Source: an uncultured Verrucomicrobiae bacterium | GTDB lineage: Bacteria > Verrucomicrobiota > Verrucomicrobiia > Chthoniobacterales > JAATET01 | Reading direction: 5' to 3' | DNA length: 64,000 nucleotides | NCBI GenBank assembly: GCA_963740185.1 | Contig: CAVUDH010000001.1 | Location: 386,839-450,838, forward strand | In this document: positions 1-57,749 of the stretch, piece by piece | Layout of the letters: each line of letters begins with the position of its first letter | How positions within the stretch are numbered: position 1 is the stretch's first letter | Translations under genes and position numbers: made by a program | Notes under the pieces: model-generated | Databases searched by the model: none | What the model saw: the letters and a program-made list of their open reading frames with translations, nothing else | What the model was told of the DNA's origin: nothing

Positions 1-254
1 AAAAAAGCGACGCCCCGCAGAAAGCCGCCCCCGAAGGCATCGAAGCCCTCAAGGAATCCAGCGGCCCCCTCGACACCGTCCTGCGCGAACTCATCGGCGG
101 CCTGCAATCCGGCATGGGCTACCTCGGAGCCGCCGACCTGACCGCCCTCAGAGCCAACGCCCGCTACATCCGCGTCAGCCCAGCCGGCCAGCGCGAAAGC
201 GCCCCCCACGACGTCATCACCGTCAAAGCCACCCCCGACACCAACCCGCGATAG
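1..254 (+). CDS. guaB: IMP dehydrogenase, C-terminal fragment (5' end outside window)
   Basis: Translation ...[54 protein letters not shown] matches the conserved GuaB C-terminus (GMGY.GA ... ES.PHDV). TAG at 252-254. Confidence 0.85.
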
Positions 255-265
255 CCCCTCGCCAA

Positions 266-382
266 CTAAACAGGATTAACAGGATTTACTGGATTAACAG
301 GAAGATGAGAGAAGGGAGATACGGCCCCATCCTCCCTTCAAAAAATCCAGTCAATCCTGCGAATCCAGTTAATCCCGTTTAG
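266..382. repeat. Hairpin element copy 1: inverted arms of three 9-bp tandem units (WGGATTWAC) around a core with an inner stem GAAGGGAG/CTCCCTTC
   Basis: Left arm is CTAAAC AGGATTAAC AGGATTTAC TGGATTAAC. Right arm is its reverse complement, ending ...GTTAATCC CGTTTAG. Inner stem at 311-318 / 332-339. Second copy at 21698-21808. Confidence 0.75.
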
Positions 383-394
383 TTTTTCACTCCC

Positions 395-18781: not shown

Positions 18782-18790
18782 CGGCCCTAT

Positions 18791-20189
18791 CTACCGCCCA
18801 CCCACCGAAGCCGACAATCGAATTTTCCCCGCCTCGACCCCCTCCGCCAGCTCCCGCCGACTCACCTTCCCCCGCGAGTTCACCGGAATCTCCCCCACCA
18901 CCAAAATCTCGCGCGGCACCTGCCAACCCGCCAACCGCCCCGCGGCCCACGCCCGCAAATCCGCCCCATCCACGTCCCCGACCACCAGCGCCACCAGCGA
19001 TTCCGCCCGCGACGCATCCCGCCGGCCAAATACCACCACCTCCGCCAACCCCGGGTAACTCCGCCAGCACCGCCTCCACCGCCGCCGGAGACACCTTCCG
19101 CCCCCCCACGTTCACCACGTCGGATACCCGTCCCACGATCCGCAATCCTCCCACCACGTCCCCCTCCAACCAATCGCCGGGCACAAACTCACCCCCCGCC
19201 CCCACGTGCAGCGCCGCACTCCGCACGCTCAGCGTCCCATCGTCCCGTCGCACCACCTCCACGCCACGCATCGGCGTCCCCACGAACCCATCCGCCACGA
19301 CCGGCCCGTCCGACGCATCGAAGCAAATCCCCCCGCACTCCGACGCCCCGTAAAACGACCGAATCTTCACACCCTGACGCTGAAAAAATTCCCGCCCGAC
19401 CCGTGCCAACAGCGGTGCCCCCGCCGAAATGCACAGCCGCAAACGCTCGACCGCCAAGCCATCCAAGCCCGCCAACGCGTGGAAAATCGCCGGCACCGCC
19501 GGCAGCACCGTCGCCCCGGTCGCCGCCAAACCCGCCCCCAGCGCCCGCGGCAACGAGTCCCGCGCCGCCACCACCGGCACCCCGCGAAACAACAGCGGCG
19601 TCACCAGATTCGAAAACCCGTAGGAATGCGAAAACGCGATCACCCCGTAATTCAAATCCCCCTCCCCGATCCCCATCGTCTCGCAAACCTGATCGCAATC
19701 CGCCACCACCGCCTCGCCCGAAAACTCCAGCGCGCGCGGCACCCCCGTCGTCCCGGAAGTCAGCTTGATCAGCACCCCCGCCCGCGTCTCCGCACCATCC
19801 AATTCTCGCAATTTGACCGCCCCATCCCACGTCAGCCGCGCCGCCGCCCCGCATTCCCGCTCCGCCCCCGCCACCTGGCCGTCCGTCAGCGTCGCGTCAA
19901 CCAGCAGCGCCGCGCAGCCCGCCCGCCAGATTCCCAGCACCATCGCCGGCCACGCCGCCACGTTCGGCGCCTGCAGGCTCACCACCGATCCCGGCGACCG
20001 TCCGGTCAATAATTCCGCGATCTCATCCGCCTCCCGCTCGATCTCCGCGAACGTCCTCGCCACCGTTCCATCGGATCGCAGCACCGCCGCCGCTCCACCC
20101 CGCCGTTCCAGCGTTCTGGCCCATCGCCGCTCGATCAACACTTTCGACTTGCACGCAACCCCGCCGTCACGCATTTTCTCCAGTTCCAT
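18791..20189 (-). CDS. AMP-dependent synthetase/ligase (acyl-CoA synthetase-like), frame break at 19045-19046
   Basis: [13 protein letters not shown]-binding motif, [26 protein letters not shown], and the C-terminal lysine motif ..PVNSRGKV. Removing one C joins LAELPGV to AEVVVFG. Confidence 0.75.
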
Positions 20190-24386: not shown

Positions 24387-24824
24387 ATGAAATCCTGCGT
24401 CCGATCACCCCGCTTCTGGTGGGCTCTCTTCGTCGGGTGGCTGCTCACGGTCTGCGTCCTGTCGTCCATTCCCGGAAATCAATTCCGCACCACCGACCTG
24501 CCGAACGCCGACAAGTTCGTCCACGTCGCTATCTTCCTCACCGGCGCGGGTTTGCTCACCTTCGCCCTCCGCACCGGCACCGCCTGGTCGACCGCCCGCA
24601 TCGCCATCCTCACCTTCCTCGCCCTCTCCGCGTTCGCAATCGCCGACGAATTTCACCAGACCTTCACCCCGCACCGCAGCGGCGCCGACGTCGGCGACCT
24701 CATCGCCGACACCATCGGCACCCTCCTTGGCGTCATTCTCGCACTCACGATTCATGCCCAGCTCAAAAACAGACAGCGCCCCAAAGCAACTCTCGGAACT
24801 CCGAGCCCGGATCCAGCGGCATAA
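24387..24824 (+). CDS. VanZ-like membrane protein
   Basis: Four TM helices with DKFVH and ADEFHQ.F.P.R....DL.AD motifs. The 3' end overlaps the ligA start by ~70 nt. Confidence 0.72.
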   Translation: MKSCVRSPRFWWALFVGWLLTVCVLSSIPGNQFRTTDLPNADKFVHVAIFLTGAGLLTFALRTGTAWSTARIAILTFLALSAFAIADEFHQTFTPHRSGADVGDLIADTIGTLLGVILALTIHAQLKNRQRPKATLGTPSPDPAA

Positions 24825-27002
24825 CGCGCTCTACCACGAGCAGGCCGCCCCCGAGATTACCGACCAGCAATACGACGCGCTCTACGCCGCGCTCGTCGCC
24901 CTCGAAGCCGCGCACCCCAATCTCGTCACCGCCGACTCGCCGACTCAGACCGTCGGCGGCCACGCCATCCTCGACGCCTTCCAGCCCGCCCAGCACCTCG
25001 TCCGGATGCAGAGCCTGGACAACACCTACTCCGAAGCCGAAGTCGCCGAATTCGTCCGCCGCATGCAGCGCCTCCTCCCCGGCGAAGACATTCCGCTCAC
25101 CGTCGAACCCAAGGTCGACGGCGTCGCGATCTCCCTCCTCTACGAAGGCGGAAAATTCGTCCGCGCCGTGACCCGCGGCGACGGCACCACCGGCGACGAC
25201 GTCACCGGCAACGCCCGCACCATCCGCTCGATTCCCGACACCCTCCTCGGCCCGGCCCCGGATCGCATCGAAATCCGCGGCGAAATCTACCTGCCAAAAA
25301 CCGAGTTCGTTCGCGTCAACGCCGAACGCGACGAAGCGGGTCTCCCCGCCTTCGCCAACCCTCGCAACACCGCCGCCGGCACGCTGAAACAGCTCGACTC
25401 CCGCGTCGCCGCCTCGCGCAACCTCGGGGCCGTCTTCTACGGATTCGGCCTCATCGAAGGCGACGCCCCCGGCACGCAATCCGCTTTCATGGATTGGCTC
25501 AAAAGTGCCGGCCTCCCCACTACCGAATGGCAGCGCCTGACCACCACCATCGACGAAACCCTCGCGGCCATCCGCGAACTCGGCCACGTCCGCCATGACT
25601 TTGTCTTCGAAACCGACGGAGCCGTCCTCAAAGCCAACCACCTCGAGCAGCAACGCGCCCTCGGCTCCACCAGCAAAGCCCCGCGCTGGGCGATGGCCTA
25701 CAAGTACGAATCCGAGCAAGCCGAGACCCGCCTCCACGACATCACCGTCCAGGTCGGCCGCACCGGCGTCCTCACCCCCGTGGCGGAACTCGATCCCGTC
25801 ACCGTGAGCGGCAGCAACGTCGCCCGCGCGACCCTGCACAACGAAGAAGAGATCGCCCGCAAAGACATCCGCATCGGCGACACCGTCGTCATCGAAAAGG
25901 CCGGCGAAGTCATCCCCGCCGTCATCCGCGTCCGCACCGACCTTCGCACCGGCGACGAACGCACGTTCGAGATGCCCACCCACTGCCCCGCCTGCAACGA
26001 CCCCGTCGTGCGGGAAGACGGCTTCGTCGCCGTTCGCTGCGTCAATCTCCACTGCCCCGCGCAAACCACGCGCCTGCTCGAGCACTTCGCGATGCGCGGC
26101 GCGCTCGACATCGAAGGCCTCGGAGACAAGGTCGCCCTCACCCTCGTCGAGCGCGGCCTCGCCCGCTCACCGCTCGATCTCTTCGACCTCACGCTCGACG
26201 TCCTCGGCCCGCTCAACCTCGGCACCACCGAAGAGCCCCGCACCTTCGGCGAAAAGAACGCCCGCAAGCTCCTCGACGCCCTCGAACGAGCCCGGACCGC
26301 CCCGCTCTGGCGCTGGCTTTTCGCCCTCGCCATCCCCGACATCGGCGCCGTCACCGCCCGCGACATCGGCGAACTCCACCCCGACCTCGCCGCCGTCGCC
26401 AACTCCGAAATCCTCCGCGACACCGTCCGCCTCCACGCGCTCAACGAACAAATCACCCGCGAAAATCCCGCCAGCCGCTCCCACAAGGATCTCCCAAAGG
26501 AAGAACGCGAAGCGATGAAGCCCGCTTGGGAAACCCTCAAGCAAACCGCCGACGAACTCGCCGAAAAACTCATCGCCGCTCACGCCGCTTCACCATCCAA
26601 GGCCCAGGGCAAGGCTCCCCGCGACGCCAACACCCGGATCGGCCCCGTCGCCGCGACCGCCGCACTCCGATGGTTCGAGAGCGAACCCGGCCGCCAACTC
26701 CTCGCCAAGCTCACCGCCCACGGCATCAACCCGGTCGCCGAACCGCCCACCACCGCCGAATCCACCGACGGTTGCCGTTCACCGGAAAAACCTTCGTCAT
26801 CACCGGCACCCTCAGTCAGCCCCGCGACGAGATCGCCGACGCGATTCGCCAACACGGCGGCAAAGTCACCGGCTCGGTCAGCGCAAAAACCGACTACCTC
26901 GTCGCCGGCAACGAAGCCGGCAGCAAACTCGAAAAGGCTCAAAAGCTCGGCCTCAAAATCCTCGACGAGCCAGCGTTCCAAAAGTTGCTCAACCCGTCTT
27001 AA
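24754..27002 (+). CDS. ligA: NAD-dependent DNA ligase, frame break (missing base) near 26771-26773
   Basis: Adenylation motif [13 protein letters not shown]/Zn finger CPACN...C.N..CPAQ, HhH repeats. The BRCT domain ([14 protein letters not shown]...) is in the next frame (ORF 26526-27002). Confidence 0.9.
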
Positions 27003-27052
27003 TTCCTTTCACCCTCTGCGGAATCCGCGAAATCTGCGGTCAAATCACCTCA

Positions 27053-28270
27053 TGCCCACCGTCCAATCACGCTACGCCACCTCCGTCGTCCCCACCTACG
27101 GTCGCTTCGACCTCGTCATCGAGCGCGGCAGCGGGTCCCGCGTCTGGGACGACGCCGGACGCGAATTTCTCGACTTCGGCGGCGGCATCGCCGTCTGCTC
27201 GCTCGGCCACGCCCATCCCCGCGTCACCGCCGCCGTCACCGCCCAGGCCGCCACCCTCGTTCACACGTCGAACCTCTACTACACCCGCCCGCAGATCGAT
27301 CTCGCCGAACGCCTCGTCGACGCCGTCGGCACGCCGGGGAAAATTTTCTGCTGCAACAGCGGCGCCGAAGCCAACGAAGGCCTCATCAAGACGGCCCGCC
27401 GCTTCGGCAGCGCCACCTCCCGCCACCACATCATCACCTTCACCGGCTCCTTTCACGGCCGCACCATGGCTGGGATTTCCGCCACGGGTCAGGACAAGGT
27501 GAAAACCGATTTCGGCCCACTCCTCGACGGCTTCACCCACGTTCCGCTCGGCGACCTTGCCGCCGTCCGCGCCTCCATCACTCCCCACACCGCCGCCATC
27601 CTCATCGAGCCCATCCAAGGCGAAGGCGGCATCCATCCCGCCGAGGGAAAATTCCTCACCGACCTCCGCGCCCTCTGCGATCAACACGACCTGCTCCTCC
27701 TCTTCGACGAGGTCCAGTGCGGCCTCGGCCGCACCGGCCATTACAGTGGCTGGCACGCCATCCCCGGTGCCACCGACGTCGTCCCGGACGGCATCAGTTG
27801 GGCCAAAGGCATCGCGAACGGTTTCCCGCTCGGCGCGTTCTGGATCCGCGACCGCCCCACCGGCAAAGATCGCGGCGCCCTCTGCGACCTCCTCGGTCCC
27901 GGCTCCCACGGCACCACCTACGGCGGCAATCCCGTTGCCTGCGCCGCCGCCCTCGCCGTGTTCGATGAGATCGAGGAAAAGCAACTCCTCGCCCACGTCC
28001 GCATGCTGGGAGCCATCTTCGCCGAAGCCCTTGCCGACCTCGACTCCCCGCACATCACCGACATCCGCGCCCTCGGCCTCATGATCGGTGTCGAACTCAC
28101 CCCCGACGATCCCGCGCTCGGAGCGCTGGCCATGACCAAAAAACTCATGGCCGCCCGGCCTCCTCGTCGTCCCCGCCGGCGCCCACACCATCCGCTTCCT
28201 CCCCCCACTCAACGTCTCCGCCGAAGACATCGCGAAGGCCGTCCAAATCCTCGCCACCACCATCGGGTAG
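27053..28270 (+). CDS. argD: Acetylornithine/succinyldiaminopimelate aminotransferase, frame break at 28154-28156
   Basis: Class-III aminotransferase: FCNSGAEANEG, GSFHGRT, LLLFDEVQCGLGRTG, WAKGIANGFPLGA (PLP Lys). Deleting one C restores the ..KLMAAGLLVVPAGAHTIRFLPPLNVS.. tail. Confidence 0.88.
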
Positions 28271-28271
28271 C

Positions 28272-28349
28272 ACAGGCATCCTGCCTGTCGCGCCGGGCTT
28301 CCAGCCCGGCGCATTGCACGCAAGTGCACCCCGCGGAGCGGCAAACACC
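28272..28349. repeat. REP-like triple-hairpin element, copy 2
   Basis: ACAGGCA-tcc-TGCCTGT, GCGCCGGGCT-tcc-AGCCCGGCGC, TGCAC-gcaa-GTGCA, then CCCGCGGAGCGGCAA. Confidence 0.78.
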
Positions 28350-28370
28350 AATATCCCCACCGACCCGCCC

Positions 28371-29102
28371 ATGGCCCCGCCACCACTCACACCCGCCCGC
28401 CGCCCCCTCCTGCGGGTCGCCATCGCCTGCAGCCTCGGCCTTCTCCTCCCGCTCATCGGCGTTCTCTGCGGCATTGCCGGAGCCTTCGATCACATCACCG
28501 ACCTCCGCGACATCGGCTGGTGGCTTGCCCCCGCCTATCTCGTCATCGGTGGCATCGTCGTCGGCCTCGCACTCGTCCCCTCCCACCTGACATCACTTCT
28601 GGCCGGGCTTCTCTTCGGCTTCACCACCGGTCTCCCCGTCGCCACCGGAATCGTGCTCATCGGAGTCCTCATCGGTTACTCGGTCGGTCGGCGCTACGCC
28701 GGCGACGATCTACGAGCCCTCGTCGACCGCTCCCGCTGGGGACGACGACTGGCAACGGCCTTGATCGACGCGACCACCGGACGAGCGATCGTGGTCGTCG
28801 CACTCGCCCGCCTGCCGCCGCAGATGCCCTTCGCCATGGGCAACGTTCTCGCGGCCAGCAGCGGCGTCCGACGGATCCCACTCGTCATCGGCACCGCCCT
28901 CGGCATGACCCCTCGAATCGGACTCGTCGTCTGGATCGGGGCCGAGCTCTCGACGTGGACCCCCGGAACCCCGATTCCCGTCGGCCTGGGCTGGGCCATC
29001 GGCAGCGCCATCGTTGGATTCGGCGGCCTCGCACTCTGGAGTTGGTGGCTACTCCGGCACTCGAACGATCCCGGCGAACCCGAAAAAGCCGTCACTTCCT
29101 GA
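28371..29102 (+). CDS. TVP38/TMEM64 (DedA-related) family membrane protein
   Basis: Polytopic protein with VPSHLTSLLAGLLFGFTTG.......IGVLIGYSVGRR resembling the SNARE-associated/TVP38 signature. Confidence 0.68.
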   Translation: MAPPPLTPARRPLLRVAIACSLGLLLPLIGVLCGIAGAFDHITDLRDIGWWLAPAYLVIGGIVVGLALVPSHLTSLLAGLLFGFTTGLPVATGIVLIGVLIGYSVGRRYAGDDLRALVDRSRWGRRLATALIDATTGRAIVVVALARLPPQMPFAMGNVLAASSGVRRIPLVIGTALGMTPRIGLVVWIGAELSTWTPGTPIPVGLGWAIGSAIVGFGGLALWSWWLLRHSNDPGEPEKAVTS

Positions 29103-47160: not shown

Positions 47161-48137
47161 TCCGCATTCCGCAATTTCCCAAGATACCAGGCAACCATCG
47201 CCGCCGTCAGCAGCAGCGCCACCAGCGGAACAACGCCAGTCGGGACCATTCCGCTCACCACGTTCGGCCCGATCCACGGCATCCAGGCGTCCGACGGCTT
47301 GATCCGAAATTTCGCGAAAAGGTTCAGCGACTGCTGACCCAGGATCCAACCCGCGTGCAGCCCGATCGGCAGCCACAACGAGTGCGTGCGCCGACAAGCC
47401 AGCGCCAGGATGATCCCAATCACGAAGAGCGTGACGCAACCCGCGAGAAAAATCCCCACAGTATCCACGCTCGAAAACGCCGATCCCAGCAGCTCGAACC
47501 CGCTCGTCCACCCGACGTCCTCCCGCGCGATCTTCCCACGCGGTTTGAAAAAGTGCACCAGCGCAAAGATCGCCGACACCGACAGGATGCCCGGCCATTT
47601 CCCGACGAACCGGATCGCCAACCCCAGCATCACGCCCCGGAAAATGAATTCCTCGAAGACCGACACCGCCGTCGCCGTCCCCAGAATCCGAATCAACGTC
47701 CCGAAGCCCGCGTCCTCCCGCACCTTGTAGACCTCCAGCGAGAGGTAGACCGCCGCCAGCGCCACCAGCGGCACGATCGCGCAGACCAGCCCGACCACGA
47801 CATCCCGCACTGCACGCCCGTTCCGCTCGATCCCCAATTCCCTCAGACTCCGGATGTGCAGCCACCACGCCGCCGGCACGATCAACACCAGCGCCGACAC
47901 CTGAGCGATCCGACCCCAGTAGCGAAAAAACGGAAACTTCTCCGCCGCCGGGATCCATCCCGAATCGGCCAGCGCCATTGCCGCCCAGTAAATTGGCGGC
48001 GACAACACGCACGCGATCAGAATCACCGTAACTACGAACAACAGTATTTTAGCGAAAGGATTCACAACCCCTCGACGCTTACACCCAAGGGGCGGACAGA
48101 GCGAATCATAGCCGACCCAGCCGGGCAACCGCAGCAT
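47136..48137 (-). CDS. CPBP-family (CAAX/Abi) intramembrane metalloprotease
   Basis: EEFIFRG and FALVH motifs in a polytopic protein. Start uncertain. Confidence 0.75.
   Translation of the reverse strand: MLRLPGWVGYDSLCPPLGCKRRGVVNPFAKILLFVVTVILIACVLSPPIYWAAMALADSGWIPAAEKFPFFRYWGRIAQVSALVLIVPAAWWLHIRSLRELGIERNGRAVRDVVVGLVCAIVPLVALAAVYLSLEVYKVREDAGFGTLIRILGTATAVSVFEEFIFRGVMLGLAIRFVGKWPGILSVSAIFALVHFFKPRGKIAREDVGWTSGFELLGSAFSSVDTVGIFLAGCVTLFVIGIILALACRRTHSLWLPIGLHAGWILGQQSLNLFAKFRIKPSDAWMPWIGPNVVSGMVPTGVVPLVALLLTAAMVAWYLGKLRNAECGMRNSG
47142..47177. repeat. Heptamer array (GCATTCC x3, flanked by GGAATTCC and GCAATTT)
   Basis: Covers the CPBP stop and the comF start. Translated as RNAECGMRN in both reading contexts. 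Confidence 0.85.
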
Positions 48138-48366
48138 CTCGAATCAGATCAGACGCCCAGGCCACCTCTTTCAGACGCCGTCCCAAGATCTCATCGGTGT
48201 TCGCGTTGGCCGCTGCCGCGCGGAGCGCCAGCGAACGCGCGTCGATCCTTTCGTGCGACTGCATCCCCCACCAATGCGACAGGGACAATCACTTGGCAAT
48301 CACCGACGTCACCGACGTCTCGAGTTGCGCTGACCGCACGACGAGCCAAAAGCCCGCTTCCTGCCT

Positions 48367-49152
48367 TCAGTCGAACCGCGCCGTCTTCTCCTGCGTCACG
48401 TAGGCCACCACGCTAAAGCGATCCCCGTCTGACTCCGACAGCACCAACGAAACGTAATACCAACCGGGCGGAGGCGGGTTCAGTTTCGCCGTATTCCGCA
48501 CGTCATTAAACACGTGGCCCGCATCCAATTGACCCTTTCGCACCTGGCCGACCTCCCAACCGTTGATCGCGCCCCCTCGATAAGGCGTCTCCGTCGCCCA
48601 GAGAGAAAGCTTCAACGTTCCCGTCTGCCCCCTCCGAGTGTGCGAGATCTTTTCGATCGCCATGTCGACCGTCCCCGCTTCGAGGTTCGTTCGCCAGCTC
48701 CACTTCCCGGACAGGTTGAACAACGGGGGCGGCGGCCCCAAAGTTCGCCGGTTGCTCAACGTGACGTGATCCACGATCGCGTAGCCCTGCGAGCGGTATT
48801 CCAACAGAACGAGATTGATGGAATACGAGCGGCGCACGTTCGGGCGGCTGACCTTCTCCGTTCGCACCAGGTTTTTGTAAAATTGCTGCGGCCCGAGCCC
48901 TTCCAACTTCCCCGTGCTCGCCAGTAGTGTCCCGCGAATCGTCCCGCCGCGATAGGGCGAATCCGTCGCCCAAAGCTGCATCTTCAACGACCCCGTCGCG
49001 TTCTCCGGGCTCGGGTTGAGCACCTTGCCCCCCTTGAGCACAACGGACGTGTCGTCATTGAAAAATTCCACCCCCGTCGAAGTGGCAAAATACGGATTCG
49101 CCATCGCGACCGAAGTCGTTAGCAAAAAGGTCGCGATCAGGTGTGCTTTCAT
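48367..49152 (-). CDS. Secreted protein with two tandem homologous domains
   Basis: Signal peptide MKAHLIATFLLTTSVAMA. Internal repeat GSLKMQLWATDSPYRGGTIRG... / GTLKLSLWATETPYRGGAING.... Last gene of the DUF4062 operon. Confidence 0.6.
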   Translation of the reverse strand: MKAHLIATFLLTTSVAMANPYFATSTGVEFFNDDTSVVLKGGKVLNPSPENATGSLKMQLWATDSPYRGGTIRGTLLASTGKLEGLGPQQFYKNLVRTEKVSRPNVRRSYSINLVLLEYRSQGYAIVDHVTLSNRRTLGPPPPLFNLSGKWSWRTNLEAGTVDMAIEKISHTRRGQTGTLKLSLWATETPYRGGAINGWEVGQVRKGQLDAGHVFNDVRNTAKLNPPPPGWYYVSLVLSESDGDRFSVVAYVTQEKTARFD

Positions 49153-49178
49153 AAATTTTCCGGAAAATCCCACCGCCC

Positions 49179-50384
49179 TCAATCCGCCCCGATCTTCTCG
49201 TAGATCGGCTGCGACCGCTCGGTCGCCTCCGCGAGGATCGCGTCCGTCGCCGCGTATTGCAGATCCTCGTTCGAATACTCCTCTCCATCCACGATCCAAC
49301 CGACCAACTTCTCGTTGTCGAAATTCATGATCTCCACCTGCTTCGCGACGCCCTCGATCCCCGTGTCCCGCCCCTCGCGCACCGTGAACGTCGAGACCAA
49401 CAACCCGTCCCTGAAGTAATAGATCACGTAGGTCTCGTTCTCCTCGTCCTTACTATCCACGTAGACCAACTGCTTGATTACGTAAGCTTCCACGTAGCCC
49501 ATGGCATTCAGCTTCCGCCCCGGCACTTCGCTGTCGCGGTGCACCTTCACCTTCCTCACGGTTTCCGACTCCAGCGCCGCGTCGATCTCCGCCCGCAGCG
49601 CCTTGAACGCCGCCGCGCTGTGGTCCTTCGACTTCGCATCATCGATCTCACCCGCCGCGGCACCCCCGCCGCCCGTCGCATTCGCGGAACCGAGCACCTT
49701 CGCCTCCGGCCCGTAGTCACCCCGACTCATCAACACATTCAGCGTGCCCTCCACCGACGGCGCATCCTCCGTCCACTCCATGTCCGGCCCGCCCCGCACC
49801 GGCACCTGCCCCAGATAATTGATCGTCACCTCGACCGGATCCGTGATCATCAATTCCCCACCCGGATCCACCACACTCCCCGGCGAAAAGGTGAAAACGT
49901 AATAGTCCGCGTGCTCCGTCCCCTTCGCCTCCTCCTGCGCTGTCGCCGCCTCGCTCAGCTGCTCATCGATGTCCGCCTGCGAACCGAATTCGCTGTCGGC
50001 CTCCACCAAAATCACCGCCGTCGACTCCCACTTTCCCCCGTAGAAAAACAACCCAAACCGCGCCCCCTCCTGATACGGCCCCCACAAAATATCCAGCGAT
50101 CCATGACTCATTCCCGGGAAATACGACTGAAAATTCTCCTCGGTTCCGAGCGTCAGCACCCGCTTGTTCGTCTCGAGGCCCACGATCGAATTCGAATCAT
50201 CCCCCTCCAGCACCACGACCATCTCCCCGTCGTCCGTCGCCGAGTCGTTGAAGATCAACCCCGACCCACCATCGAAGGTGATGCTTTCCACCGCTTCCCG
50301 AGCCAACCCGCTGCTCACCCCACCAACCAACAAAATCGCCGAACAAACCCAGCGCGAAATCAACGTCTCAATCTTCAACTTCAT
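49179..50384 (-). CDS. Secreted or membrane-anchored hypothetical protein (401 aa)
   Basis: N-terminal hydrophobic signal/anchor. Start overlaps the stop of the upstream gene (ATGA). Confidence 0.6.
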   Translation of the reverse strand: MKLKIETLISRWVCSAILLVGGVSSGLAREAVESITFDGGSGLIFNDSATDDGEMVVVLEGDDSNSIVGLETNKRVLTLGTEENFQSYFPGMSHGSLDILWGPYQEGARFGLFFYGGKWESTAVILVEADSEFGSQADIDEQLSEAATAQEEAKGTEHADYYVFTFSPGSVVDPGGELMITDPVEVTINYLGQVPVRGGPDMEWTEDAPSVEGTLNVLMSRGDYGPEAKVLGSANATGGGGAAAGEIDDAKSKDHSAAAFKALRAEIDAALESETVRKVKVHRDSEVPGRKLNAMGYVEAYVIKQLVYVDSKDEENETYVIYYFRDGLLVSTFTVREGRDTGIEGVAKQVEIMNFDNEKLVGWIVDGEEYSNEDLQYAATDAILAEATERSQPIYEKIGAD

Positions 50385-52543
50385 AAATTCTCTCCGCGCT
50401 CCTCCGCCAGCAATTGGTATTCCTCAAATCCAGCCTTCATCTCCTCCGGCGCGTCCTCCGACTCGTCGTAAACCCCGAGCGCCAGGCCACTCCATCGCCG
50501 AACCTCCACCCAGTCCTCCGCCCGCGCAAACGCCACGCACAGCGCGTCAACGCTCTTCAGCGTTCTCTCATCGGCCGCCCCGAGGCGCTGCTTCCGTGTC
50601 TCATAACTCGCTTCCAGCAGCGGCACCGCCAAATCTTCAAGACGATTTACGATGTAGTCGACCGCCAGAGAATATTGATCCGCAGCCACCGCCAGCGAAT
50701 CCGCGCCGAAAAGTCGCTCCGCCGTCGCGATCTTCTCCAGCATCGCCGCCTGATACGCCTCCGATTTCTCCTGCGCATCCAACACTCGCGCCAAATCTCC
50801 CATCGCATCCACGACCTGCTCCTGATCCGGACCAATCGTCGCAACCAAGATCTCCAGCTGCCGCCGTGTCAGAGCCTCAGACTCCTCGAAGCTTTCCTCC
50901 CGGCGAAGCCGCGACGCCACCGTTCCCATCAACATTGTCGCCATCCCGCTCTCCGAACCCAACGAAGACTCCGCATCCGCCAGCAACCCCCGATAATACG
51001 CCGTCGTTTCCCCCGAGTCTCCGTGATCCGCCAAGAACATCGCCAGACCCAACCGCGCGTCCAGCGTCGCCTCCGCCCCCGGGCCATTCACCTCCGTGCT
51101 CGTCGCAACTGCCTGCCGGATCACCGTCTCCGCTTCGTCCAACCGCCCCTGATCCGCCAGCGACTGAGCGTAGGTCCAGCGGGCGCTCAACGTCCGCTCA
51201 CTCCCCGCCCCCAGCCGCTCATCCAAAGCCGCGATCACCCGTAAAAACAGCGCGTCCGCCTCCTCGAATTCATCCGCCATTCGCCTGATCATCGCCAGAG
51301 TCCAAGCCGCATCCACCGTCTCCGGAGCATCCATTCCCAATTCCCTCTCCCGGACTTCCAGCACGTGCTGCCCCAACTCAATGCTCTCCCCCAGGCTCAC
51401 CGGCCGTTCCTTGGACAGTGCCAACATCAGTTCCAGGGTCGCCGGATGTTCGCGGCCCAATTCCGGATTCGCCTCCGCCCAATCGACTCCTTCTCGCAGA
51501 ATTTCAACCGGTTCCATCGACTTCCGATCCCACCGCCCGACCAGCTCTGCCAGCGTCACGACCGTTCCCGCCCATTCCACCGGCTGCTCGTCTCGGTCCA
51601 GCAACGCCAGCCGCTCCCGATAAGCCGCGATCGCCTCCGTGTTTCGACCCAGCGCCGCCTCCCCCTCCGCCAACCTCAGCAACGCCGCCACCTTCACCGC
51701 CGGATCCGTCGCCCCAGCCACCGCCGCCTCCGCCGCCCGAATCTCCTCCTCGACCGCCGCCCGAATCTCCTCCGGCGTCCGACCCGTTGCCTTGGCCACG
51801 TTGGCCTCCGCCCTAGCCACCACGTCAACACCCCCACCATCGATCGACTCCCGCAACCGAGCCTGCTCCGCCAGCAGCATCGCGATCAGCTCACTCTGCT
51901 CATCAAGTTTGCTCGTCGTCTCGGCAATCACCGCTTCCTGCGACTGGGTCTTCGAATACAGAAAAATTCCACCCGCCACCGCGACCAGCAACGCCACCGC
52001 CGACACCACCATCGTCATCCGTCGCCTCGCCCGTTCCTTCGCCAGCTCCTTCCGCAGCCCCTCCACGCTCAACTGCAGCTCCCGCGTCCGCGAATTCAGG
52101 TCCTCTCGCGTCTCAAACTCGTAATACAGCTCATCCCGCTCCAGCAACCTCGCCCGGTGCGCCAACTGCAACGCTTGCTTGTCCTCCGGCTCGGGCTCGT
52201 GCTCGTCGAAGGGATAATCCTTCCCGCACAAAAACACGTAGCACGGCAACCCCAGCTCCACCGCGATCTCGTATTCCAGCTGCGTGAAACTCCGCCGCTC
52301 CGGCGAGCCCTCCAGCACCGGCTGCGGCTCCGCCCCGTAGTAAAATCCCGCCAGGTGCACCACCGCGTTGCACGTCTCCAGCTTCGTGCGCAACATTTCC
52401 CGCACGCTCTTGTAGTCTGGCGGAAAATCGTCCTGCACGATCGGCAGACACTCCATCCGCCTCAGTCCCTCACTCACCAACCCCCGCGCCGTCCGCAAAT
52501 CCCGGCTCGTCGCACTGACAAAAATTCTTGGAACTGGCTGCAT
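50381..52543 (-). CDS. DUF4062 (TIR-like) - TM - TPR-array protein
   Basis: N-terminus IFVSATSRDL...R..V...L......P..QDDF......V...L..K.E.CNAVVHLAGFYYG....RSFTQLEYEIA...LPCYVFL fits my recollection of the DUF4062 pattern. One TM helix (MTMVVSAVALLVAVAGGIFLY) follows KERARRR. Then about 8 KLC-type TPRs (..LG..HP.TL..). Confidence 0.8.
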   Translation of the reverse strand: MQPVPRIFVSATSRDLRTARGLVSEGLRRMECLPIVQDDFPPDYKSVREMLRTKLETCNAVVHLAGFYYGAEPQPVLEGSPERRSFTQLEYEIAVELGLPCYVFLCGKDYPFDEHEPEPEDKQALQLAHRARLLERDELYYEFETREDLNSRTRELQLSVEGLRKELAKERARRRMTMVVSAVALLVAVAGGIFLYSKTQSQEAVIAETTSKLDEQSELIAMLLAEQARLRESIDGGGVDVVARAEANVAKATGRTPEEIRAAVEEEIRAAEAAVAGATDPAVKVAALLRLAEGEAALGRNTEAIAAYRERLALLDRDEQPVEWAGTVVTLAELVGRWDRKSMEPVEILREGVDWAEANPELGREHPATLELMLALSKERPVSLGESIELGQHVLEVRERELGMDAPETVDAAWTLAMIRRMADEFEEADALFLRVIAALDERLGAGSERTLSARWTYAQSLADQGRLDEAETVIRQAVATSTEVNGPGAEATLDARLGLAMFLADHGDSGETTAYYRGLLADAESSLGSESGMATMLMGTVASRLRREESFEESEALTRRQLEILVATIGPDQEQVVDAMGDLARVLDAQEKSEAYQAAMLEKIATAERLFGADSLAVAADQYSLAVDYIVNRLEDLAVPLLEASYETRKQRLGAADERTLKSVDALCVAFARAEDWVEVRRWSGLALGVYDESEDAPEEMKAGFEEYQLLAEERGENL

Positions 52544-52666
52544 TCGATTGGCAAATATTGGGTTGGCAATTAATCTCCGCGATCACCCTAAAAAACCTCA
52601 CCCCGCACGGTCAACCCTCACGATCCCGAGCCACATTCCCCTCGCCCGCCCCGCCCCTTTTGAGCT

Positions 52667-53584
52667 TTGCTGCCCCCCGTGAACGCAACCGACAGCTTCC
52701 TCAAAGCCCTCCACAAAATCACCGGCACCGGCCAATTCCACTCCACCGGCACCTCCCCCTTCTTCCTGCCCGGCATCCACCTCGAAGGCGTTGGTGAACT
52801 CGCCTTCCCGCTCCCCACCGCCCAGGCCGAAGCCCTCAAAACGCACGCCGAACCCGCCCCCTATGGCCAGGGCACCGCCACCATCCTCGACGAAACCGTC
52901 CGCAAATGCTGGCAACTCGACGCCGCCCACCTCTCATTTCAATCCCCCGAATGGCCCGAGTTCCTCGAACTCATCGCCACCCAGATCCGCGAAGACCTCG
53001 GCATCAAAGGCCGCATCTCCCTCCACCCCTACAAGCTCCTGCTCTACGGACCCGGCGGCCACTTCCGCGCCCACCGCGACACCGAAAAACTCGATTCCAT
53101 GATCGGCTCTCTCATCGTCGCGCTCCCCTCCGCGCACGACGGCGGCGAACTCCTCATCCGCCACGACGACCGGGAAGTCCTCGTCGACTTCAGCGACGAC
53201 ACCCGCCTTCGCACCTTTCAATACGCCGCCTTCTTCGCTGATTGCGAACACGAGGTCCGCCCCGTGCGATCCGGATACCGCTGCTGCCTCGCCTACGACC
53301 TCCGCCTCGACCACGGCAATCCCAGCCAACTCAACGTCCCCCTCACCCGGCAATCCCAGACGCTCACCGCCCCCGTCACCGCCCTCCGCGACGAGCGATC
53401 CGGCCAACTTTCCGTCGTCCCCCTCGAGCACCAATACACCCGGGCCAACCTCTCCTGGGCCGCGCTCAAAGGCAACGACGCCGTCAAAGGCCACGCCCTT
53501 TCCGCCGCCCTCCGATCCGCCGATTGTCACGTCCATCTCGCCCTCCTCACGCTTCACCAGATGGGCCAACTCGAAGACGGCTAA
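52667..53584 (+). CDS. 2OG-Fe(II) oxygenase (prolyl-hydroxylase-like) domain protein, N-terminal part, ends at an in-frame TAA
   Basis: HxD...H triad context: GGHFRAHRDTEK ... CEHEVRPVRSGYRCCLAYDL. TTG/GTG start is uncertain. Confidence 0.75.
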   Translation: MLPPVNATDSFLKALHKITGTGQFHSTGTSPFFLPGIHLEGVGELAFPLPTAQAEALKTHAEPAPYGQGTATILDETVRKCWQLDAAHLSFQSPEWPEFLELIATQIREDLGIKGRISLHPYKLLLYGPGGHFRAHRDTEKLDSMIGSLIVALPSAHDGGELLIRHDDREVLVDFSDDTRLRTFQYAAFFADCEHEVRPVRSGYRCCLAYDLRLDHGNPSQLNVPLTRQSQTLTAPVTALRDERSGQLSVVPLEHQYTRANLSWAALKGNDAVKGHALSAALRSADCHVHLALLTLHQMGQLEDG

Positions 53585-53617
53585 GGTCGATTCGAAGTCG
53601 ACGAAGACGACGCCACC

Positions 53618-54790
53618 ATGGGCGAAATCTACGAAGAAAGCCTCACTCTCGACCACTGGCGCGACGCCCAGGATCAACCCACAGAACTCGGCTGCTACCG
53701 CATCGCCACCGATGCCCTGCTGACGTCCGAACCCATCACCTCCGCCGAGCCCGACGAAAAAGAAGCCGAAGGCTACACCGGCAACGCCGGCTGCACCGTC
53801 GACCTCTGGTATCGCCGCGCCGCCATCGTCTTCTGGCGGACATCCGACGACGAAACCATCCGCGCCCACCACGATCTCTCCGGCGCCTGCCAACAACTCA
53901 CCGCACTCGCCCGACAGGAAAAGCACCACCCCTCCGACGCCTTTATCCGCCTCGCGACAGCCATCATCCAGCGCTATCCCGAAGCCCTCCCCTACCACCT
54001 CCACCGATCGACCGCCGCCGCAGAAGACCGCTTCCCCACTCTGCTTAAAGCCCTCGCCACCACCCGCGCCGCCGACCTCTTCGAGCGCCTCGCCGACCGC
54101 GTCCCCGTCGCCGCCTTCACACTCTGCGACGCCCCGCTCTGGAAAAAACTTCTCAACGCCTTCGGCACCGCCAGATGCCAAAGCCTTGTCGACCGCACCA
54201 ACGATCAGCCAATCGAAGAATGCCGCCCCTTCCTCTTCGATCTCCTCGACGCCATCTGGAACGAGCCCGACGCCGCCCCCCTCGCCCGACGCCTCACCGA
54301 GCTTCTCGCCAACCTAGCCCCCAAGCCCCCCGCCAGCCCCGGCTGGAACCGCCCCGCAGAAACCAATCCGCCCGGCGACCCCGCAGAAATCCGCGTCCCC
54401 GCCCGCGAGCCCGGCTCACTCATTCCCGAGCTCACCGCCTTCGCCCAAGCCACCCTCGAAGCCGAGATCGCCCGCCCCCTCGAACCCTACCCCGACTGGA
54501 CCCGCCCCGTCCCCGAAACCGCAGAAAATCGCCCACCACTCATTCGCGAATTACTCACCTTCCTGGCCGACCCCACCGAGTCCACCCACCGATTCAAGCG
54601 CAACCAAGGAGATCGCTCCGTCATCGAGCAATTCATTCGAAGCCACCAACTTGATCTCGACCATCGCACCGAAGAGACCAGCCGCCCCTACTCCCTCATC
54701 TGCAAAAAAACCGAGGCCTCCTTCCACCGCCGCCGCGCCCACCGCGACCGCGAAATCGACCTCGCCGAAAAACTCACCCACCTCGCCTGA
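53618..54790 (+). CDS. Hypothetical protein, same frame as the 2OG oxygenase ORF (probable C-terminal part)
   Basis: Frames of 52667 and 53618 are identical. Only the TAA at 53582-53584 separates them. Confidence 0.65.
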   Translation: MGEIYEESLTLDHWRDAQDQPTELGCYRIATDALLTSEPITSAEPDEKEAEGYTGNAGCTVDLWYRRAAIVFWRTSDDETIRAHHDLSGACQQLTALARQEKHHPSDAFIRLATAIIQRYPEALPYHLHRSTAAAEDRFPTLLKALATTRAADLFERLADRVPVAAFTLCDAPLWKKLLNAFGTARCQSLVDRTNDQPIEECRPFLFDLLDAIWNEPDAAPLARRLTELLANLAPKPPASPGWNRPAETNPPGDPAEIRVPAREPGSLIPELTAFAQATLEAEIARPLEPYPDWTRPVPETAENRPPLIRELLTFLADPTESTHRFKRNQGDRSVIEQFIRSHQLDLDHRTEETSRPYSLICKKTEASFHRRRAHRDREIDLAEKLTHLA

Positions 54791-54851
54791 CCCTACCTTC
54801 GGATTCAGGCACCCACCCCCCCCCACGCATCCCGGCCCGCGCAGAAACCCG

Positions 54852-54945
54852 GCGGGCAGAATGCCCGCACGGGGAGCGCGGGCATCCTGCCCGCTCCTCG
54901 GGGCTTCCAGCCCCGAGGCCCGACCCAACCGCGAAGCGGCACTTC
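54852..54945. repeat. REP-like multi-hairpin element, variant copy 3
   Basis: GCGGGCA-gaa-TGCCCGC, GCGGGCA-tcc-TGCCCGC, CCTCGGGGCT-tcc-AGCCCCGAGG, then ..CGCGAAGCGGCA. Confidence 0.7.
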
Positions 54946-55166
54946 CAACCGCGCACCACCTCGTCAACAGACCGAATACCGACCCCGTTGAAGTCGCTCC
55001 GAGGAAAAATCCCGGCACATTCATCAAGGCAAGCGGACCGATCTGAAACCCATTCACGAATCACGACCACGGCCCCGGACAGGATCCCCGAATACCCCAT
55101 CAGTCCGCAGTCGGCGGTCGGTGCCCGGAGTCAAAACTTCCGGCCCCCCACCGAGAAATCTCCCCC

Positions 55167-55904
55167 CTACCGCGCGGCGACGTCGTTCGACGCCGTCACA
55201 ATTTCCTTCGCCTGGCTCAGGAACTCGTCGCGATTCAGTGTCTTGCTGACTTCGAGCAGCACCTGGCCATCCGCATCGGTGAGGACCATCGACGGAATGT
55301 AGCCGTAGGTGTTCGGTGGCACGGCGCGAACCGGGCTCTTGTCGAGGTCCACCCCCGGCCACGGCATCCGATGATCCTTCAGATACGCAACCTCGGCGTC
55401 GCGGCTTTTGTCGCTGGGAACCAGGACCGCCGCCAACGACGCGTCCCGTCCCTTCAGTTGCTTGTAAAATCGGACCAGCTCTGGCGTGAAAGCTACGCAC
55501 GGTCCACACCACGACGCACTGTAGTAAAAGAGGTAATACTTCGGCGCGGACCCGTCAGAATTGAGAATCGACGCCGAGCCACCCCGATCATCGAGCAAAT
55601 TGCCCTCCAACGCAGCCGGGATCTTCGCCGTGGCGGGAACGGCGTTCGCGGCGACGGCCGCCGCAGCGCTGGCTTGCTCGTCAATCCAAGCCAGGTCCGC
55701 CTCGCTCAGAAAGCTTCGCTGCACATATTGCGCGCGTCCATTCGGGAGCAGCAGGGTGATTTTTTCGCCCTCCACCTTGTGAAAACTCGCCTCCATCGTC
55801 GCCGTCCCGTCGCGGCTCGTCCACGAGCGCAACTCGTCGGCGCTCACGTCCGAATTCAAGAAAAAGATCGATGCGGCCAGCCCGGCGATGAAGCGAATGT
55901 TCAT
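55167..55904 (-). CDS. Secreted thioredoxin-like (nucleoredoxin/TlpA-like) protein with an N-terminal SHD1-like domain
   Basis: Signal peptide, ELRSWTSRDG....A.F......I.LL..NG, then a WCGPC redox motif. Confidence 0.78.
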   Translation of the reverse strand: MNIRFIAGLAASIFFLNSDVSADELRSWTSRDGTATMEASFHKVEGEKITLLLPNGRAQYVQRSFLSEADLAWIDEQASAAAAVAANAVPATAKIPAALEGNLLDDRGGSASILNSDGSAPKYYLFYYSASWCGPCVAFTPELVRFYKQLKGRDASLAAVLVPSDKSRDAEVAYLKDHRMPWPGVDLDKSPVRAVPPNTYGYIPSMVLTDADGQVLLEVSKTLNRDEFLSQAKEIVTASNDVAAR

Positions 55905-55969
55905 GGGCCGAACATTCACGGAATTTAGACCGTTTGCAAGACGGTCCGGCCCCGGGGAATCCCCTAGAT

Positions 55970-56860
55970 TTAGGCGCGAGGATGAAACTGCTTGTGGACG
56001 TTTTTGAGCCGCTTCTGGTCCACGTGGGTGTAGATCTGCGTCGTCGCGATGTCGGCGTGCCCGAGCAATTCCTGGATGATGCGCAGATCGGCCCCGTTCC
56101 CGAGCAGATGCGTGGCAAAACTGTGCCGCAACAAGTGCGGGTAGACGTTTGCCTCCAGCCCGGCGAGCGCGCCGTATTTTTTCACGAGCTGCCACACCCG
56201 CTGCGGCGTGAGGCGCTTGCCGCGATTTGACAAAAAGATCTCCGCCCCCGTCTTCGGCCCGACCAGCCCCGGACGTTCATTCGACAGATACCGGCCGATG
56301 GCATCTCGCGCCGCCTTTCCCACCGGCACCATCCGCGTTTTGTTCCCCTTGCCCGTCACGCGAATCCAACCCTCCTCCGCGTCGAAATTCTCCAGCCTCG
56401 CGTTGCACAATTCCGAAATCCGCAACCCCGACGCGTAAAGCAGTTCAAAGATCGCCCGGTTTCGCAACCCCAGCGGATCGTTGTCGTTCACAGCCGCGAT
56501 CAGCCGCTCGACTTCGGGAACGTTCAGCGTGTCGGGCAGGTAGCGCTCGATCCGCGGGATCGAAATGAACTCCGCCGGGTCGACCCGAAGCCGCCCGCGT
56601 GCCACCAGAAACCGGAAGAAGATCCGAATCGCCACGGCCTCGACCTTGATCGACGCGGCCGCGAGTCCTGCGCGCTTGCGATGCGCCAGGTAGTCACTGA
56701 TGTGCCCGGCCTCGACCGCCGTAGACTCCGTGACCTGCACCGTCTTCGACGCCCACGCGGCGAAGGTCTCCAGCGAGCGGCGGGTCGAAAGTTGGTAATT
56801 CGTGGACAGCCCCCGCTCCGTCGCGAGATAGATCAGAAAATCTTCAAGGTCGGATTCCAT
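55970..56860 (-). CDS. xerD: Tyrosine recombinase XerD-like
   Basis: R..HLLRHSFATHLL..GADLR.IQ.LLGHADI.TTQIYTHV. C-terminal ..FHPRA resembles XerD. Confidence 0.82.
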   Translation of the reverse strand: MESDLEDFLIYLATERGLSTNYQLSTRRSLETFAAWASKTVQVTESTAVEAGHISDYLAHRKRAGLAAASIKVEAVAIRIFFRFLVARGRLRVDPAEFISIPRIERYLPDTLNVPEVERLIAAVNDNDPLGLRNRAIFELLYASGLRISELCNARLENFDAEEGWIRVTGKGNKTRMVPVGKAARDAIGRYLSNERPGLVGPKTGAEIFLSNRGKRLTPQRVWQLVKKYGALAGLEANVYPHLLRHSFATHLLGNGADLRIIQELLGHADIATTQIYTHVDQKRLKNVHKQFHPRA

Positions 56861-57749
56861 GACCCGACGCGTCGAATTTCAGCCCCGTCAGCCGGGTGTA
56901 AGCATCGACGTATTTTTCCGAAGTCCGCCGGGCCACGTCCGGTGGCAGCTCCGGGGCCGGGTCCGTCTTGTCCCAATCCAGCGTCTCGAGGTAGTCGCGC
57001 ACGTATTGTTTGTCGAAGCTGAGCGGACTTGACCCGACCTCGTATTGGTCCGCCTGCCAGAACCGCGACGAGTCCGGCGTCAGGCATTCGTCGATCAGAA
57101 CGAGGTCGCCGTCGACCATTCCGAATTCAAACTTCGTGTCCGCAATGATGATCCCCCGCTGCGCCGCGATGGCCCGCCCGTGTTCGTAGAGTTCGACGCT
57201 CCAATCCCGGACCTGCAGAGCGACCTCATCGCCGAGGAGCGCGCGACATTGGTGCCACGAAATGTTCTCGTCGTGTCCCGACGTCGCCTTCGTCGACGGC
57301 GTGAAGATCGGCTCCGGCAGCTTCTCGGCCTGCCGCAATCCCGCGGGCACCCCGTGCCCGCAGACCCCGCCCGACCGCTGGTAATCCGCCCAACCCGAGC
57401 CCGCGAGGTAACCCCGCACCACGCACTCGACCGGTAGCGGCATCGCCTTTTCGACGACCATCGACCGACCCGCCAGCATCTCCTCGTGCGGCTTCAGAGC
57501 TTCCGGAAACGACCCCGGTTTCAGCTCGGTCAAATGATTGGGAACAAAATCCAGCCGCTCGAACCAGAACTGCGAAAGCTGCGTCAGCACACTCCCCTTC
57601 GAAGGGATCGCCGTCGGCAGGATGCAATCGAACGCCGAGATCCGATCCGTCGCCACGATGAGCAGCCGCTCGCCCAGATCAAACACCTCGCGCACCTTTC
57701 CGCTGCGCAATTTTTTAATACCTCGCAGGTCAACCGTCAGAACATCCAT
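56844..57749 (-). CDS. purC: Phosphoribosylaminoimidazole-succinocarboxamide synthase
   Basis: SGKVREVF......L..ATDRISAFD, long-form PurC. ..DTKFEFG... Confidence 0.92.
   Translation of the reverse strand: MDVLTVDLRGIKKLRSGKVREVFDLGERLLIVATDRISAFDCILPTAIPSKGSVLTQLSQFWFERLDFVPNHLTELKPGSFPEALKPHEEMLAGRSMVVEKAMPLPVECVVRGYLAGSGWADYQRSGGVCGHGVPAGLRQAEKLPEPIFTPSTKATSGHDENISWHQCRALLGDEVALQVRDWSVELYEHGRAIAAQRGIIIADTKFEFGMVDGDLVLIDECLTPDSSRFWQADQYEVGSSPLSFDKQYVRDYLETLDWDKTDPAPELPPDVARRTSEKYVDAYTRLTGLKFDASGHGIRP

Follow-up and report, generated by a model that had tools for sequence, protein, structure and literature searches.

We analyzed a 64,000-nt stretch of DNA from an uncultured Verrucomicrobiae bacterium (contig CAVUDH010000001.1; we will call the whole stretch the window), in which three co-directional genes on the minus strand, A, B, and C, lie within positions 48367-52543. 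Protein A has an N-terminal DUF4062 domain, followed by a helical stalk, a transmembrane (TM) helix, and an array of tetratricopeptide repeats (TPRs). We propose that A is a ligand-activated NADase receptor of the inner membrane that senses the periplasm, with its N-terminus inside and its C-terminus outside the cytoplasm (N-in/C-out), and with the exported protein B as its partner. We consider this proposal somewhat probable, and the role of such a receptor would most likely be to sense phages or other aggressors at the envelope stage. The DUF4062 family, now renamed NIR, is known as of 2026; what we rate as new is a membrane-spanning variant with a TPR ectodomain that is predicted to be periplasmic.

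The DUF4062/NIR domain of protein A

Residues 6-94 of A match Pfam's DUF4062 model (PF13271) with E = 2e-12 and 47.5 bits, as compared to a cutoff of 24.7 bits, and the match covers the full model (positions 1-82). The motifs that the earlier note had read from the sequence are all present: IFVSATSRDL at residue 7, AVVHLAGFYYG at residue 60, SFTQLEYEIA at residue 85, CYVFL at residue 101, and, just before the TM helix, KERARRR at residue 169. DUF4062 or NIR domains are TIR-like NADase effectors in the phage defence systems Swarozyc, Avs2-NIR/Vulcan/Vesta, and Evangelion (2026 preprints). Hydrolysis of NAD+ was reported for all four bacterial systems tested and for human TEP1, and a glutamate is required: E97 in KpSwz (Swarozyc), E108 in PsAvs2, E98 in Vulcan, E103 in VstA, and E87 in Eva01 (Evangelion). 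Defence is reported to depend on E97 of KpSwz and on E87 of Eva01.

To locate the corresponding residue of A, we used a profile of 46 diverse relatives of residues 1-175. This profile matches the solved DUF4062 chain of KpSwz (PDB 10wc, 11cq, 11cv) with E = 1.8e-9, in an alignment that spans only the first ~130 positions of the profile. The alanine of the deposited E97A mutant of KpSwz aligns exactly with E90 of A, which is invariant across the 46 relatives. Also, a tblastn search of plasmids found ~20.7-kb plasmids from Staphylococcus aureus that encode a 147-aa DUF4062 protein, which we take to be Eva01 given its residue numbering and the type of plasmid. A is 33% identical to this protein in a pairwise alignment, which places F8 of A on F11, S85-F86-T87 on S-Y-T, and E90-Y91 on E87-Y88. 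In the family of A, the consensus around the glutamate is RRSYTQLEYD, and the glutamate, the S-[YF]-T motif, and the N-terminal phenylalanine are all kept and near-invariant.

The model score and the presence of every described motif place the N-terminal domain of A, at the level of sequence, in the DUF4062/NIR family, with the catalytic glutamate retained as E90. The earlier note had assigned the domain to DUF4062 and had left its glutamate to be located, and both points are now supported. The domain would then be expected to cleave NAD+. Alternatively, the domain of the membrane-bound relatives might not be a NADase: it could be a nucleotide- or nucleoside-processing enzyme (similar to 2-deoxyribosyltransferases or to CMP hydrolases), or a module for oligomerization or an adaptor. 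The family profile has a weak match to nucleoside 2-deoxyribosyltransferase (E = 0.006), the DUF4062 domain of Avs2 was initially annotated as a CMP hydrolase, and A is only ~33% identical to validated NADases. However, the retention of the three near-invariant features, and the hydrolysis of NAD+ by every one of the four bacterial systems tested and by TEP1, argue against this alternative, and we consider it improbable.

Membrane topology and the TPR array

A contains one strongly hydrophobic segment, at residues 176-197. All 22 residues are uncharged, and the Kyte-Doolittle hydropathy is 2.45 over 19 residues. There are seven lysines or arginines in the 15 residues before this segment and two after it, and A lacks an N-terminal signal peptide. 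A genome scan for relatives of the N-terminal domain identified 78 loci (L001-L078), which are mostly from metagenome-assembled genomes (MAGs) of Verrucomicrobiota and Planctomycetota; Nitrosomonas, Methylococcales, and Acidobacteriota contribute a few. We surveyed the 72 relatives from these loci that have at least 230 amino acids, and in 52 of them a TM-like helix lies directly behind the domain and the stalk helix. The single TM helix preceded by KERARRR, as described in the earlier note, is part of a conserved module (DUF4062-TM), which occurs commonly among Verrucomicrobiota and Planctomycetota. In the 52 TM-type relatives, the mean number of lysines plus arginines is 4.4 over the 15 residues that precede the helix and 2.75 behind it, and 42 of the 52 have an excess on the preceding side.

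Across phyla, the TM helix keeps its hydrophobicity and not its sequence (49% mean identity). G191 is invariant in the close family and G192 nearly so, and a GG, GxG, or GxxxG motif is present in 41 of the 52 TM segments. The stalk helix has a pattern, RELQ..VE.L..EL, that is conserved across the relatives; it may be comparable to the helical stalk behind the TIR-like domain of KpSwz. Relatives that lack the TM helix often have a P-loop, as in the classical arrangement of STAND proteins (GxxGxGKT is found in the TM-less relatives from L061, L066, L067, L072, L074, and L077). A itself has no Walker A motif anywhere and no match to NB-ARC or NACHT in Pfam, in agreement with the earlier report that it lacks an NTPase module.

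Behind the TM helix, Pfam finds matches to TPR_12 (E = 1e-18), TPR_NPHP3, TPR_14, and TPR_10. These kinesin-light-chain-type repeats had been recognized before, but they extend over ~430 amino acids (residues 291-720) instead of ~480. The juxtamembrane segment that precedes them has conserved residues A245, V249, and A250. There are about 41 full-length homologues of A, with 37-60% identity to it, and mean pairwise identity across 31 family members drops steadily from the N-terminal to the C-terminal part of the protein (Table 1). The TPR array diverges fast, and would be the variable sensor part and the ectodomain that binds the ligand. Other TM-type relatives have kinesin-light-chain-type TPR arrays of varied length, or C-terminal regions with no match in Pfam.

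Outside the family, the best matches to the TPR array are Ser/Thr kinase-TPR proteins, each with a single TM helix behind the kinase, while none of the matching STAND-TPR proteins have a TM helix. Because the nearest relatives of the array outside the family have the order kinase-TM-TPR, A appears to follow a known receptor plan in which a putative NADase replaces the kinase. The receptor Ser/Thr kinases of Planctomycetota, Acidobacteriota, and Gemmatimonadota share with A an N-terminal enzymatic output in the cytoplasm (putatively so in A), one TM helix, and a homologous C-terminal TPR_12 array, but their output is a kinase and not a NADase. (A has no Pfam match to Pkinase.) The relation is a swap of output modules.

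The orientation of A is independently supported by a domain that some of its homologues share, by fusion, with secreted proteins. In 17 of the ~41 homologues of A, the TPR array ends in one or two fused copies of the C-terminal domain of B (~147 amino acids). A profile search found this domain in only 50 clusters among 1.84 billion representative proteins; small stand-alone proteins make up these clusters together with fusions of the A type and proteins of the B type. Enough N-terminal sequence is present in 32 non-A members; 26 of these pass a strict test for signal-peptide-like hydrophobicity, and the remaining six have borderline signal peptides or are obvious fragments. One member is a lipoprotein. 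Because the domain that is fused to the end of the array otherwise sits behind signal peptides, the array is probably outside the cytoplasm. This placement fits both the positive-inside rule and the lack of a signal peptide on A. With one TM helix, no signal peptide, positive-inside flanks, and a C-terminal part in common with secreted proteins, A looks like a bitopic N-in/C-out membrane protein, as judged by hydropathy and by the logic of the fusions. The earlier prediction of a periplasmic TPR array thus gains a second line of support, although the topology is still deduced from sequence.

We also considered that the hydrophobic segment might not span the membrane, or that the orientation might be reversed. 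On this view, A would resemble Vulcan, as a repeat protein in the cytoplasm or peripheral to the membrane, with B and C as neighbors that have no relation to it. This would fit with the usual location of kinesin-light-chain-type TPRs, which is the cytoplasm, and with the frequent occurrence of C without A (see below). But it seems very improbable given the 22 uncharged residues and their hydropathy of 2.45, the conservation of hydrophobicity across phyla, the lack of an N-terminal signal peptide on A, the fusion of the array in homologues to a domain of otherwise secreted proteins, and the conserved overlap of the A and B genes.

Table 1. Positions of genes A, B, and C and their parts in the window, and of neighboring genes at related loci. 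Identity is the mean pairwise value over 31 family members.
Feature	Position	Strand	Residues	Mean identity	Description
Gene A	50381..52543	-	720 aa		DUF4062/NIR domain, stalk helix, TM helix, juxtamembrane helical segment, TPR array (ORF, Pfam)
A, DUF4062/NIR TIR-like domain	52109..52543	-	1-145	85%	Putatively cytoplasmic; PF13271, KpSwz profile match, Eva01-type alignment
A, E90 codon	52274..52276	-	90		Candidate catalytic Glu of the E-Y motif (TQLEYEIA); invariant in 46 relatives; aligned to KpSwz E97 and Eva01 E87
A, stalk helix	52019..52108	-	146-175	78%	KERARRR positive cluster at its end
A, single TM helix	51953..52018	-	176-197	49%	MTMVVSAVALLVAVAGGIFLYS; conserved GG motif
A, juxtamembrane helical segment	51674..51952	-	198-290	38%	Predicted coiled coil; putatively periplasmic, from the topology
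A, TPR array	50384..51673	-	291-720	32%	Kinesin-light-chain type; putatively periplasmic
Gene B	49179..50384	-	401 aa		Signal peptide and two unannotated domains
B, signal peptide	50301..50384	-	1-28		Hydrophobic N-terminus; predicted cleavage after SGLA
B, N-terminal domain	49623..50300	-	29-254		Beta-rich, no annotation; AlphaFold pLDDT (confidence score) mostly <50
B, C-terminal domain	49182..49622	-	255-401		Helix, beta-sheet, helix; invariant R-E-G motif; pLDDT ~90
Gene C	48367..49152	-	261 aa		Counted from ATG; signal peptide and two tandem beta-sandwiches
Mla-like neighborhoods	L089:4650-8938, L090:4114-8405, L092:13427-17801, L079:18488-21125				Also in L001, L003-L005, L008, L013
TrkA_N/RyR genes	L089:11287-12945, L081:6280-7983, L005:6769-8415, L008:12267-13928				Immediately downstream of A homologues

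The neighboring proteins B and C

The list of open reading frames (ORFs) in the window contains the three genes exactly as the earlier note had described them, including the overlap of the stop codon of A with the start codon of B (ATGA). B is translationally coupled to A, and 26 nt lie between B and C. A scan of positions 47900-52900 for promoters and terminators found no more sites than in shuffled sequence. A cluster look-up for A, B, and C returned neither names nor accessions, and B and C have no match in Pfam.

All homologues of B have signal-peptide-like N-termini, as judged by hydrophobicity. The N-terminal domain of B has relatives in other proteins that carry the C-terminal domain. 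An alignment of the C-terminal domain gave only noise when compared to Pfam and to sequences from the PDB, and a Foldseek search of the PDB with the model of B, whose N-terminal 250 residues are of low confidence, found nothing at E <= 0.001 (TM-scores ~0.1). Homologues of B adjoin A in L007 (two copies), L003 (one copy), and L079, and L007 also keeps the ATGA overlap. As many paralogues of A carry the C-terminal domain at the end of the array, by fusion, B most likely docks on the array or caps it as a co-sensor, in which case the domain would be supplied in trans.

L003 is the MAG with the closest N-terminal domain after L007. At L003:9965-13420, the A homologue is split (486 amino acids plus a separate ORF of 295 amino acids), and the B homologue is also split, into two overlapping pieces. 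These are either pseudogenes or the result of indel errors in long reads.

C has a predicted signal peptide (residues 1-18, with cleavage after AMA). Its two halves are homologous (35% identity over 79 amino acids, E = 4e-12), and its predicted structure has two Ig/FnIII-like beta-sandwiches (pLDDT 88.8), so the earlier description of C as a signal-peptide protein with two homologous tandem domains seems correct. Foldseek matches C to RbmA, to transglutaminase beta-barrels, and to arrestin with E ~1e-6, but with TM-scores of just 0.2-0.3, because the orientation of the domains differs. These generic Ig/FnIII-like matches carry no information about function, and we rejected them as a guide to the role of C.

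C adjoins the A gene in four of nine contexts (the window, L007, L079, and L081). In the other five, which are unrelated, it occurs without A (L080, L084, L087, L096, and L097). So C is a facultative neighbor of A and not a dedicated component. The earlier note had proposed that A has two secreted partners. This holds for B, which is tightly linked to A, either beside it (as in L007, L003, and L079) or fused to it, and does not hold for C, which occurs without A in five of the nine contexts.

In L093, two 205-aa proteins with weak matches to fn3 (6568-7185 and 14838-15455) flank P0044, which is a distant DUF4062-TM-TPR gene. An IS481-family transposase also flanks P0044. Together with C, these suggest that small secreted beta-sandwich proteins beside A-type genes may be a recurring theme.

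Proposed mechanism, related systems, and genomic context

In Swarozyc, Avs-NIR, and Vulcan, binding of the target leads to assembly, which switches on the NADase, and KpSwz is regulated via dimer or oligomer interfaces and via stalks. By analogy to these systems, we propose that the TPR array, together with B, would bind a periplasmic ligand. Binding would change the oligomeric state or the packing of the TM and stalk helices, which would relieve the autoinhibition of the cytoplasmic NADase domains, so that NAD+ in the cytoplasm would be converted to ADP-ribose and nicotinamide. The outcome would be growth arrest or an abortive response.

A resembles Swarozyc and Evangelion, which are single-gene anti-phage NADases, in the order of its parts: an N-terminal DUF4062/NIR domain with the same glutamate, then a helical stalk, then a C-terminal sensing region that is variable. 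However, Swarozyc and Evangelion are described as soluble cytoplasmic proteins with short and unrelated auxiliary regions, encoded on defence islands or plasmids, whereas A has a TM helix behind the stalk, 520 amino acids of predicted periplasmic coiled coil and TPRs, and a chromosomal site among housekeeping genes. In place of an auxiliary domain of the KpSwz type, the rest of A consists of the TM helix, the predicted coiled coil, and the TPRs. Vulcan and the NIR-bearing Avs2/STAND proteins are similar to A in coupling a NIR effector to a sensor of alpha-solenoid repeats, and Vulcan, like A, has no NTPase between the two (HEAT repeats are fused directly to its NIR domain). But the sensors of Vulcan and Avs act in the cytoplasm, on phage proteins, while in A a membrane helix separates the effector from the repeats. 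Furthermore, the repeats of A are of the TPR_12/TPR_10 type instead of HEAT, and the P-loop of Avs is absent from A. From these sequence features, membership of A in Swarozyc, Avs, or Vulcan is not supported.

The earlier note did not recognize A as part of a named system. This is fair for the architecture, but the domain itself has already been characterized (NIR, 2026 preprints). The main text of the preprints on Swarozyc, Avs2-NIR/Vulcan/Vesta, and Evangelion mentions no variants that are transmembrane or periplasmic, that have TPR ectodomains, or that are from Verrucomicrobiota or Planctomycetota. A search of the literature for membrane-anchored TIR or DUF4062 receptors in bacteria gave nothing specific. 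In the literature that we covered, NAD+-depleting defence modules sense their triggers inside the cell, after the entry of phage DNA and proteins, and extracytoplasmic immune sensing coupled to NAD+ depletion is not known among the characterized DUF4062, TIR, and SIR2 defence systems.

The overall plan of A is reminiscent of animal Toll-like receptors, which have an extracytoplasmic sensor of solenoid repeats, one TM helix, a cytoplasmic TIR-type domain, and sometimes a secreted co-receptor. The resemblance is of topology only. Toll-like receptors have leucine-rich repeats instead of TPRs, with no homology between the ectodomains, and they are type I membrane proteins, while A would be type II. 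Also, the TIR domain of Toll-like receptors serves as a scaffold, while DUF4062 forms a TIR-like enzyme family of its own. We tentatively suggest that A could be the founding example of a widespread class of receptors with Toll-like topology in Planctomycetota and Verrucomicrobiota, in which a hypervariable TPR ectodomain and the co-receptor B sense a phage or a competitor at the envelope, and clustering of the TM and stalk helices via the Gly-Gly motif fires the NADase.

Several observations weigh against our proposal. The genes near A are purC, xerD, thioredoxin, a CAAX protease, comF, accD, and folC, without a defence island. (We named purC, xerD, comF, accD, folC, and rpe from their translations and from the Pfam matches of purC, xerD, and thioredoxin in L079; in the window, the surrounding ORFs have Pfam matches to a thioredoxin-like protein, a 2-oxoglutarate (2OG) oxygenase, and a CAAX protease.) PADLOC has no match for A, B, or C; when run on these and two neighbors, it returned a single generic match, to the 2OG oxygenase, on a neighbor. 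At the six related loci whose neighbors were annotated with Pfam, the context is also mostly housekeeping, with two exceptions: L092 has a PIN/PhdYeFM pair at a distance of 8 kb, and L093 has the transposase. For NIR genes, 20% is the reported figure for a defence context, with a background near 4%. The positive-inside bias is only modest among distant relatives, and the TIR-like fold of the N-terminal domain is assigned from sequence-profile matches. Many homologues of A lack both the B gene and the fused form of its domain, so that B, although a real partner, is an accessory one and not essential to the family. And arrays of kinesin-light-chain-type TPRs are what STAND proteins of the cytoplasm typically have.

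Context therefore does not bear out the defence role that the earlier note had raised: the neighbors are housekeeping genes, PADLOC is silent, and the N-terminal domain has no match in a phage collection. With the same architecture and topology, A might instead have a housekeeping role in envelope surveillance, such as in the homeostasis of lipids or of the outer membrane, with ADP-ribose as a signal or with a local change in NAD+, and without killing. Besides the context and the lack of matches in PADLOC and in phages (and the plasmid matches are only to distant DUF4062 proteins), two features of gene order favor this idea. First, the window shares the synteny of purC-xerD-thioredoxin with L079, so that A is at a conserved chromosomal site. 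Second, in at least eight related genomes, A adjoins an Mla-like operon (MlaE and the ABC ATPase MlaF) and a gene for a TPR-S protein (PF20308); most of these operons also have a gene for an MCE-like protein of ~307 amino acids. In L089, A directly follows the Mla-like operon, on the same strand and after a gap of 62 nt. This synteny may reflect a link to envelope lipid homeostasis, or it may be merely inherited gene order, and the Mla-like neighborhood is absent from the window. Also against this idea, the effector is conserved while the sensor diverges; so extreme a contrast, along with the tandem paralogues, is typical of conflict systems, and all of the DUF4062 proteins tested so far act by depleting NAD+ in defence. 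In short, the conserved effector, the variable sensor, and the tandem paralogy favor a role in conflict, while the housekeeping context and the recurrent Mla-like neighbors favor surveillance. We view the surveillance role as unlikely and prefer the sensing of phages or other aggressors.

The tandem paralogy is clearest in L079 (ERZ25039505 contig_6573). At L079:6988-16594, which corresponds to 48367-57749 of the window, a tandem array A-C-B-A-A-B replaces A-B-C. Two genes of this array, C and the second copy of B, appear to be frameshifted. The site downstream of purC-xerD-thioredoxin looks like a hotspot for the gain and loss of A, B, and C genes. L036 has three copies of A paralogues. Across L001-L078, none of rpe, folC, accD, comF, the CAAX protease, the 2OG oxygenase, the 390-aa ORF described below, thioredoxin, or xerD is near A, and we took a match to purC near A in L030 to be coincidental. 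Unsupervised clustering of the ORFs that flank A in the 78 loci was dominated by antisense shadow ORFs of high-GC genomes and yielded no partner that is conserved across phyla, so we discarded it.

Immediately downstream of several A homologues is a gene for a membrane protein of 550-570 amino acids that combines TrkA_N (RCK, an NAD-binding Rossmann domain) with RyR (Table 1). Such a gene is also downstream of A in L009. More distant homologues are 3-6 kb from A in L034 and L037, and in L081, the order of the genes is A, the TrkA_N/RyR membrane protein, and C. Beside a putative NADase, a membrane protein that binds NAD(H) could act as a downstream effector or as a sensor. At L049:9986-19954, a 712-aa ORF with the N-terminus IVLGIAGH...LARGADQ comes after a DUF4062 protein of 2560 amino acids that lacks the early TM helix. 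A homologue of this N-terminus is encoded near the A gene of L028 (7582-8346), so this may be another accessory family.

Elsewhere in the window, the thioredoxin gene and A are separated by two genes on the plus strand (52667-54790), which encode a 2OG-Fe(II) oxygenase of 305 amino acids and a 390-aa ORF with no solid match in Pfam. Because they are absent from the site in L079 and from all of the related loci, these two genes look like an insertion. At 24727-28590 (plus strand), an ORF of 1287 amino acids has the domains of NAD-dependent DNA ligase followed by a class-III aminotransferase domain, which is probably two adjacent genes that are read through and not a real fusion. We also checked a 716-aa ORF at 18039-20189 as a potential paralogue of A, but it is an AMP-binding enzyme. 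The plus strand of the window (1-64000; G+C ~63%) has a strongly and uniformly negative GC skew, with values from -0.08 to -0.40 across all 2-kb bins. As the cumulative skew is monotonic, there is no turning point in the window of the kind expected at an origin or terminus of replication.

If our proposal is correct, then some bacteria would couple recognition outside the cytoplasm to a NADase effector, with the same topological logic as the Toll-like receptors of animals. The NIR family, which includes human TEP1, NWD1/2, and NPHP3, would be extended to membrane receptors. As the module is abundant, with varied ectodomains, tandem arrays of paralogues, and a new and rare secreted partner domain, it would provide a defined set of constructs for studying periplasmic sensing. 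If A is instead involved in envelope homeostasis, then this would be the first non-defence function to be proposed for DUF4062/NIR in bacteria.

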